Positions 275 to 1,113 of a stretch of 64,000 nucleotides of DNA are shown here, piece after piece; the stretch's first letter is position 1; each line of letters starts with the position of its first letter. The position numbers and the translations under genes are program-made. Source of the stretch: an uncultured Chlamydiae bacterium (GTDB taxonomy: Bacteria > Chlamydiota > Chlamydiia > Chlamydiales > SM23-39); NCBI GenBank assembly GCA_963828125.1, contig CAWHDP010000002.1, positions 960,001-1,024,000 on the forward strand, written 5' to 3'. The notes beneath the pieces are model-generated. The model was given only the letters and a program-made list of their open reading frames with translations. It was not told where the DNA came from and ran no database searches.

Positions 275-343
275 GAGTCATAAAGCATCCCACTTAGCAC
301 TGCTAGGTGGCCGCCACGGGTTCCGTATCCGTGGTTTTTTTTT
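275..343 (+). ncRNA. Candidate ~70-nt leader/antitoxin RNA upstream of the NYN gene (two hairpins plus U-tract)
   Basis: Hairpin CCACTTAGC-act-GCTAGGTGG (290-310), then GCCACGGG-N7-TCCGTGG with a T9 tract (313-343); the same second stem precedes the paralog at 18389-18411. Confidence 0.5.
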
Positions 344-354
344 GGAGGGAAACA

Positions 355-1113
355 GTGGAGTACGAACGAATCATCTGTTTTGTCGACGGGTTCAATATGT
401 ACCACGCCTTGAAGAACCTCCAATTACCGCACCTAAAATGGCTAGATTTACAGCTGCTATTCAGCCGACTGACCCGCTCAAAGTCCCAGGTGATAACACA
501 GATCCTCTTCTTTTCGGCCTACCCTACCTGGAAACCAGACTCATACCACAGACATAAACTCTACATTAAGGCTCTATCATCTCATGGGGTTACCCCAATC
601 TTGGGGCAATTTAAAAATAAGCCCAAAAAATGCTTGAAATGCAAAGCGGAATGGATAAGCCACGAAGAAAAAGAAACGGATGTTAATCTGGCGCTCGCGA
701 TGCTGGATTTAGCTTATAAGGATCGTTACGACCACGCCTTCCTCTTATCAAGAGACTCCGACCTCGCCCCCGCTGTACGCAAAGTCAAACAAAATTTCCC
801 CGACAAGAAAATAACAGTCTTTTCCCCATACAACTACCGCCACAGCTCAGAATTAATGCAAGCATGTGACGGACATAAGACAATAAATTTCAGGCACATA
901 TCTACCTCCTTATTCCCCGAACAAGTATATGATGCGGGAGGAAATCTTGTTGTTATTCGCCCCCCTGAATACGCGCCCCCTAATAAACTCGCCCAAAAAC
1001 CTGATGAAGCAACACCGCTCGAACAAATAATTGCCGACAAGATGGAGACATCCTTCTTAAGTGAAGTTCCTGACAAAGACTCCGACAGGCAGAGAGGGGA
1101 GCCCCTCAGATAA
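355..1113 (+). CDS. NYN domain (LabA/DUF88, PIN-like) ribonuclease with CxxC insert
   Basis: Motifs FVDGFNMYH, CLKC, EEKETDVNLA and SRDSDLAP; GTG start at 355 follows SD GGAGG (ORF track start 307 lies inside the hairpins). Confidence 0.85.
   Translation: MEYERIICFVDGFNMYHALKNLQLPHLKWLDLQLLFSRLTRSKSQVITQILFFSAYPTWKPDSYHRHKLYIKALSSHGVTPILGQFKNKPKKCLKCKAEWISHEEKETDVNLALAMLDLAYKDRYDHAFLLSRDSDLAPAVRKVKQNFPDKKITVFSPYNYRHSSELMQACDGHKTINFRHISTSLFPEQVYDAGGNLVVIRPPEYAPPNKLAQKPDEATPLEQIIADKMETSFLSEVPDKDSDRQRGEPLR

Follow-up and report, generated by a model that had tools for sequence, protein, structure and literature searches.

A two-hairpin RNA linked to HEC-09-type NYN ribonuclease genes, a candidate type III-like toxin-antitoxin module

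Few families of type III RNA antitoxins are known, and their toxins are ToxN-like or HEPN proteins. In ToxIN, CptIN, TenpIN and AbiQ, as described by Blower et al. (2012, PMC3401426), a promoter, one or more RNA units, a terminator and an endoribonuclease gene make up the locus, with tandem arrays in some loci and carriage on plasmids or mobile elements. The loci of HEC-09-type NYN ribonucleases resemble these in the layout of the sense loci and in plasmid and mobile-element carriage, and arrays occur in 10 homologous loci but not in the window copies. However, the HEC-09 protein has a PIN/NYN fold rather than the Kid/MazF-like ToxN fold of ToxIN, CptIN and TenpIN, and its RNA unit consists of two hairpins instead of a pseudoknot. 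Most HEC-09 loci also carry a single unit whose second hairpin (P2) doubles as the terminator, the units of an array have diverged, and many RNAs lie on the opposite strand.

In the AbiF system an RNase gene follows a terminator and a short structured RNA, AbiFr (RCd22), which has its own promoter and carries its motif once or twice (Saunier et al., bioRxiv 10.1101/2025.04.15.648962), and according to two reports the RNA binds the protein and works in cis and in trans (bioRxiv 10.1101/2025.04.15.648962; PMC12737573). By analogy, this pair would be the best, and closest, functional counterpart of the HEC-09 protein and its RNA. However, AbiF is a HEPN nuclease with the Rfam RF03085 motif, whereas the intact HEC-09 protein studied here (copy 1) has no HEPN match and the leaders have no RF03085 match.

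Ordinary NYN proteins of the LabA/DUF88 type (PF01936; 2qip VPA0982; MARF1) have the core fold and acidic residues in common with HEC-09. Their genes, where sampled, lack the RNA (1–2 of 27 detector-positive), whereas most of the HEC-09 genes sampled have it. HEC-09 was set up by Payne et al. (bioRxiv 10.1101/2024.01.29.577857) as a single-gene defence candidate with a MARF1-like NYN fold and conserved aspartates, and it is the protein family of copy 1. In the accessible part of that preprint HEC-09 gave no protection against the phage panel, and HEC-03 and HEC-04 alone are named for IPTG toxicity. The clones included about 150 bp of upstream sequence where possible, a part that could include the RNA, and the lack of protection therefore fits a neutralised or harmless protein. 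The main text, as far as it was available, contains neither 'ncRNA' nor 'non-coding', and the accessible parts of PMC7180214 and PMC10910872 mention NYN in passing only. Our literature search, which covered openly accessible abstracts and main texts, returned no description of an RNA with NYN or HEC-09 genes. The structured RNA family is apparently undescribed, and the nuclease family is already catalogued as HEC-09. An earlier note on this DNA did not recognise the family as described, which holds for the RNA and not for the protein.

The window is a 64,000-nt stretch of contig CAWHDP010000002.1 from an uncultured Chlamydiae bacterium. It contains an intact NYN gene with its RNA (copy 1), a decayed second copy (copy 2) and a third fragment, with the following features.

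1..42, minus strand: start of a tyrosine integrase gene that leaves the window (360 aa; 97..1179(-) in L007; PF00589, E=1e-27)
about 264-273, plus strand: putative extended -10 of copy 1 (TG-n-TATACA), weak and without a clear -35
280..343, plus strand: predicted RNA of copy 1, about 60 nt, scored as a terminator-like site in the scan
up to 287-289 (ATC), plus strand: single-stranded 5' end of the copy 1 RNA, preceding P1
290-310, plus strand: P1 hairpin of copy 1, followed by linker 311-312
313-335, plus strand: P2/terminator of copy 1, GCCACGGG-TTCCGTA-TCCGTGGT
335-343, plus strand: T-tract of copy 1 (U-tract in the RNA), read from the sequence
344-348, plus strand: Shine-Dalgarno GGAGG of the NYN gene, read from the sequence
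355..1113, plus strand: intact NYN/HEC-09 ribonuclease gene, 252 aa, GTG start at 355, core 1-210, C-tail unconserved
17919..18368, minus strand: copy 2 NYN pseudogene, only residues 1-75 aligning to copy 1, at 33% identity
18025..18072, no strand: 48-bp palindromic repeat inside the copy 2 pseudogene, not part of the system
18380..18451, minus strand: predicted RNA of copy 2, about 70 nt, fold z=-3.36
18444-18415 and 18411-18389, minus strand: P1 and P2 of copy 2, joined by an AAA linker, read from the sequence
18458..18486, minus strand: copy 2 promoter, TTGCAA 18486-18481, 17-nt spacer, TACGAT 18463-18458
28973..29238, plus strand: third NYN fragment, of the copy 2 lineage, without a 5' end and without the RNA

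The earlier note had described two NYN paralogs, each behind a leader of about 70 nt with a variable hairpin, then a conserved-stem hairpin and a U-rich tail, in the order promoter, structured RNA, terminator and RNase. Both leaders are indeed present, with P1, P2 and the tract located in each copy, and the order is seen in the window copies and in sense homologs. The length is correct for copy 2 and too great for copy 1, and copy 1 alone is an intact paralog.

Segment 285-345 of copy 1 folds with z=-4.18, a value matched by 0 of 200 shuffles. The covariance model (CM R1), of which copy 1 is a training-set member, matches 281-343 with 61.9 bits. The -10 element did not appear in the output of the promoter scanner; its position agrees with the family spacing of 9-14 nt ahead of ATCC. 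A longer ORF with a GTG start at 307 was rejected, as it falls within P1 and homologs begin where 355 does. The RNA-NYN unit is divergent from the integrase gene, which is an integrative-element context. No tRNA was found in the window; 10 of 59 scanned loci have one nearby.

Two hairpin repeats of about 33 nt at 1104-1161, overlapping the NYN stop and accompanied by a minus-strand promoter-like site, were considered as a second RNA and rejected. They are present in 1 of 201 order-level genomes, with three copies in L288. Their sole metagenome match lies between gene pieces of what is presumably an ATPase/winged-helix-type gene, and one frame gives an 11-residue repeat. They are probably a decayed coding repeat outside the RNA-NYN system. 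Further downstream, a stretch of about 124 nt (1238-1361) that begins with a terminator hairpin recurs with 88% identity downstream of NYN in a second chlamydial genome (L009), and is perhaps an element end.

The copy 2 promoter is located where the earlier note placed it, and it is absent from the scanner output because it agrees with the consensus at 8/12 positions only. Its RNA ends in CTGTTTTGT, a shortened U-tract, ahead of GTG 18368. The covariance model, which was trained without copy 2, matches 18380-18441 with 25.2 bits, and RNAs near-identical to this one sit before intact genes in L023 and L292. The mid-domain of the protein, including the EEKETD motif, is gone and is followed by unrelated sequence, and copy 2 has no Pfam NYN match. 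The 15-nt core of the palindrome occurs 108 times in the genome, with another copy of the repeat at about 15041-15088, and the element is MITE- or REP-like. The pattern CCACGG-N4-14-CCGTGG occurs twice in the 2.37-Mb genome, each time ahead of NYN. The P2 stem is therefore not a genome-wide repeat unrelated to NYN genes, an outcome that the earlier note had named as fatal to its proposal.

The copy 1 protein matches Pfam NYN with 65 bits and PADLOC HEC-09 (PDLC04163) far better, with 182 bits over residues 4-203 (profile positions 2-199 of 203), and it counts as a full-length HEC-09 member. An AF2 model (pLDDT 90.3) retrieves 2qip (VPA0982) and the MARF1 NYN domain in Foldseek. Residues D11, D109, D134 and D136 are 99-100% conserved among 181 homologs and all are found in copy 1, as is a C93-x2-C96 hairpin whose cysteines are 87% conserved in the same set. 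The NYN core is basic, with a median pI of 9.3 in 193 proteins. A HEC-09-related subfamily without the CxxC hairpin (L205-L211, L228-L234, L247-L252 and L255) keeps a two-hairpin RNA in sense orientation, of a consensus peculiar to that subfamily, and the cysteines are therefore dispensable for the RNA link.

A search with the profile returned 996 representatives (clusters at 50% identity) at E<=1e-30. At E<=1e-10 their number rises to 4233, probably with ordinary NYN proteins among them. Close homologs with a named source are chlamydial. HEC-09 is patchily distributed, being found in 30 of 300 chlamydial genomes and in 16 of 400, 23 of 301 and 14 of 201 genomes of three other groups. In E. 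coli, 13 of 5426 genomes match and every match is plasmid-borne. On ColE1-type plasmids of 3.5-4.3 kb the NYN gene is one of 3 annotated genes (another plasmid has 6 genes), and one naturally occurring E. coli plasmid of 3.5 kb has the RNA-NYN pair in its two-unit form. A viral scan with the single copy 1 protein gave no matches; homologs with the RNA plan are also found on viral contigs and plasmids. The NYN-RNA units of L146, L148 and L149 have flanks that resemble, as we read them, insertion-sequence ends or transposase tails, and these units are possibly passenger cargo.

The RNA was identified ahead of 29 of the 30 full-length chlamydial NYN genes, about half of which supplied the training sequences of the covariance model; the exception is L025. 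In 100 sources the model gave 85 matches. An NYN start follows directly in 81 of these and an NYN remnant in two; of the other two, one is a tandem duplicate and the other has no NYN partner. Within the window it matched the two NYN leaders alone, and in the whole genome at E<=1 (150 of 552 candidates scored) it matched four places, two of which are these leaders. When 150 chlamydial genomes were scanned whole, 13 had the RNA and 12 of these are the HEC-09 genomes of that range; as 35 candidates were scored per genome, the negatives are soft. Among 29 chlamydial RNA places, 22 precede NYN or a remnant, five are orphan promoter-RNA cassettes and two resemble plain terminators.

The out-of-sample set consisted of 51 of 58 loci from three other groups, leaving out three already seen and four without a 5' end, and the ordinary NYN controls of 27 of 30 loci, leaving out two partial and one unpublished. 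The covariance model at E<=1 matched just 10 places in the 82 new loci and none in ordinary NYN loci. The sequence of the RNA is therefore subfamily-specific and its structure common, and for this reason detectors replaced the model out of sample. A detector whose settings were fixed in advance was positive at 28 of 51 HEC-09 loci compared with 2 of 27 ordinary NYN loci. Among control genes it was positive at 8 of 150 from the own genome, one of which is copy 1, and at 11 of 150 from the flanks. A relaxed detector, written post hoc after seeing the misses of the fixed one, fired at 40 of 51 HEC-09 loci compared with 1 of 27 ordinary NYN loci and 5 of 150 control genes. It missed 11 of the 51 loci, and inspection by eye gave no clear unit in L213, L235, L253 or L254. 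The RNA is a real structured family, with predicted promoters, tied to the HEC-09-type NYN subfamily.

Broken NYN genes often retain an intact RNA, as in copy 2, L013, L018, L026, L028, L029, L183 and L190. There are also orphan promoter-RNA-terminator cassettes with no NYN gene (L186, L189, L181, L192, L194 and L012:103-172), mostly in genomes with several NYN copies and with no common downstream gene; these are possible leftover antitoxins. One NYN gene has two tandem copies of the entire promoter-RNA unit ahead of it (L021:2123-2337), and in L123, L124, L127, L141 and L060 there is no U-tract and the hairpins directly adjoin the start codon.

The plan of the RNA in homologs consists of a promoter, a few single-stranded bases ending in AUC, CUC or UUC, the P1 stem (7-10 bp), a linker of 1-4 nt, the P2 stem (8-11 bp) and a U-tract. 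The single-stranded end is UCAUC(C)-like and the predicted RNA is about 60 nt. This plan is present in Chlamydiota, Alphaproteobacteria, Gemmatimonadota, Patescibacteria and others. P2 with its U-tract lies 16-24 nt ahead of the start codon in most loci, and the P2 loops are often ordinary and UNCG-like. A sigma-70 match of at least 9/12 precedes 32% of 72 RNAs compared with 5% of shuffled sequences, and the -10 end is mostly 9-14 nt before ATCC in the same 72.

Both helices covary, which answers a check that the earlier note had proposed. The alignment was made by sequence alone from 52 of 89 distinct detector-positive leaders picked for similar length. In these 52 sense RNAs, 88.8% of cells are paired, a fraction inflated by preselection with the two-hairpin detector, and both-side changes occur in 15 of 17 pairs. 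The covariation score is 0.532 compared with 0.226 for shuffled alignments, a control weakened by kinship. Slid pairings score 0.07-0.15; this control, like the large number of different pair types, is independent of detector preselection and kinship. RNAalifold recovers the same two helices, and P1 covaries as strongly as P2. Fifteen RNAs from loci in which the RNA is divergent from NYN give a similar picture, with 93.7% of cells paired, both-side changes in 11 of 17 pairs and a score of 0.449 compared with 0.201.

There is no sign of a pseudoknot: loop-loop and 5'-end-loop complements are mostly 1-3 nt in 89 units, and an extra covarying helix was not found. No Rfam family matches window positions 1-20000 at E<=1, and none matches the leaders of 18 homologous loci, in which plasmid RNAI and one weak unrelated match were the only results; the Rfam search suggested by the earlier note thus gave no match to the leaders.

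In 10 loci the RNA unit is repeated two to three times, in diverged form, between one promoter and one terminator; the window copies have no such array. Seven loci (L063, L070, L109, L112, L113, L115 and L116) have three diverged units each. The array unit consists of a 6-11 nt spacer ending in UCAUC or UUUCUC, then P1, 1-2 nt and P2. In three-unit arrays a U-tract follows the last P2 only, and on the three enterobacterial plasmids (L162-L164) a terminator of its own accompanies the two units. Because internal P2 stems lack a U-tract and the plasmids have their own terminator, P2 is part of the repeated unit and not just a terminator.

In 23 loci the RNA unit is on the opposite strand and points away from NYN, and the type III order of promoter, RNA, terminator and gene, found in the window copies, does not apply there. 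The divergent state requires eight changes on both trees, at least four of them forced by well-supported branches, and a single clade of divergent loci is rejected with p-AU 1.5e-82, on trees with long branches. A promoter of at least 9/12 lies on the RNA strand in 9 of the 23. The best-scoring HEC-09 members are of this kind. Since termination of the NYN message is beyond an RNA that points away from the gene, the RNA most likely acts as a molecule. The arrays and the opposite-strand loci argue against a simple attenuator.

We consider it fairly probable that HEC-09-type NYN with the adjacent two-hairpin RNA forms a type III-like toxin-antitoxin module. The earlier note had left a choice between an RNA antitoxin and an attenuator, and the arrays, the opposite-strand RNAs and the absence of an alternative structure make the antitoxin the better fit. 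This toxin-antitoxin reading starts from the structure and conservation of the RNA, its linkage to one NYN subfamily, the arrays, the independence of orientation, the intact acidic active-site residues and the mobile contexts. Transcription from a constitutive sigma-70-type promoter would yield an abundant short RNA, and termination at P2 and the U-tract would end most transcripts and leave little nuclease mRNA. The RNA unit (UCAUC-like end, P1, linker and P2) would then bind the basic NYN ribonuclease and inhibit it, with the single-stranded end probably sitting in the active site. At array loci the predicted cleavage sites are the 6-11 nt spacers, where the nuclease would cut and release monomers. 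The trigger would be a stop in RNA supply, through loss of the element or phage shut-off of host transcription, after which the freed nuclease would degrade RNA, resulting in addiction and possibly abortive infection. The predicted toxicity has indirect support in sequence patterns, namely gene decay with the RNA kept, intact genes that are almost never without the RNA, and carriage as small-plasmid cargo.

Several points count against the toxin-antitoxin reading. The accessible part of the Payne et al. preprint reports no toxicity or defence for HEC-09, the RNA has no pseudoknot, most loci have a single unit, the protein does not have the ToxN fold, a few homologs, such as L025, have no visible RNA, and 11 of 51 out-of-sample loci escaped even the relaxed detector. 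In addition, none of the 23 divergent loci has an NYN-strand promoter of at least 9/12.

If the toxin-antitoxin reading is true, the RNA-antitoxin class would become considerably wider, taking in a PIN/NYN family whose RNA is not a pseudoknot. The reading would also say how HEC-09 works, a catalogued defence candidate that gave no protection in its phage test and whose RNA partner went unnoticed, and would account for some near-cryptic ColE1-type plasmids. A broader version is a tentative and rather doubtful extension: a phylum-spanning class in which a PIN/NYN nuclease is held by an orientation-independent two-hairpin RNA, arrays are self-cut, and the UCAUC/AUCACC-like end is a decoy of the cellular target. 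We take this end to resemble the anti-Shine-Dalgarno tail of 16S rRNA. In this broader version RNA-antitoxin systems would gain a third toxin fold, and the pair would be the second nuclease-array RNP after AbiF, of a kind that could give rise to RNA-guided enzymes.

It is unlikely, though the strongest of the alternatives, that the RNA is a partner or substrate of NYN in a non-toxic complex (a cofactor, a sensor or an autoregulatory RNP) instead of an antidote. The arrays, orientation independence and covariation point to a working RNA molecule and not specifically to an inhibitor; neither toxicity nor defence is on record for HEC-09 in the part of its description available to us; and a CRISPR-associated NYN works in RNA processing (Chi and White). 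However, the patchy spread, the decay of genes whose RNA is kept and the near-sole status of the pair as plasmid cargo fit a selfish toxic module better.

A cis-acting leader only, that is, a terminator or attenuator damping NYN expression, seems quite improbable. The usual location of P2 and the U-tract shortly ahead of the start codon is what such a leader would show, and five strong orphan copies stand before unrelated genes or no gene. However, no antiterminator was found: P2 pairs with a mean probability of 0.95-0.98, and of the eight column pairs with the highest APC-MI seven belong to P1 or P2. Nor was a conserved leader peptide found; an AUG lies in P1 in only 25 of 85 loci, with random frames (9/8/8). 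The internal array P2 stems without U-tracts, the separate terminator of the plasmid loci and the 23 RNAs that cannot terminate NYN mRNA from the other strand further oppose this explanation, as does the fact that 22 of 29 chlamydial matches precede NYN or remnants, the orphans having no downstream gene in common.

We regard as very improbable a type I-like antisense repressor that pairs with NYN mRNA. Where the RNA is divergent, any NYN leader made by read-through would be its complement, and a ribosome-binding site rich in purines could pair with the pyrimidine-rich 5' end. However, in the 85 sense loci the 5' end of the RNA shows no preference for its own start region (-4.83 kcal/mol, compared with -4.85 for others), 54% of shuffles being as good, and one structure is kept whether the RNA is sense, arrayed or divergent. 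Hairpins that arose by chance or are generic terminators, as suggested by the UNCG-like P2 loops and by detectors that fire at 3-7% of control genes, are largely refuted by the covariation of P1 as strong as that of P2, by linkage far above controls and by the four places matched in the own genome (E<=1, 150 of 552 candidates scored), half of them NYN leaders.

Other genes of the window include a 2818-aa RHS-repeat/DUF6531 protein (3086-11542, minus strand) followed by a 180-aa ORF with no Pfam match (2547-3089, minus strand), which together may be a polymorphic toxin-immunity-like pair. Defence-island-like neighbours are a truncated RhuM (1498-2160, minus strand; PADLOC PDC-S05), an AAA_14-DUF4143 gene (16568-17923, minus strand; PDC-S01), and, at 21001-22675 on the minus strand, an HTH-IrrE/M78 gene with a 180-aa ORF behind it that has no Pfam match. 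An ORF at 29271-30416 on the plus strand matches Peptidase_C58 weakly, with 26.5 bits across 40 residues.
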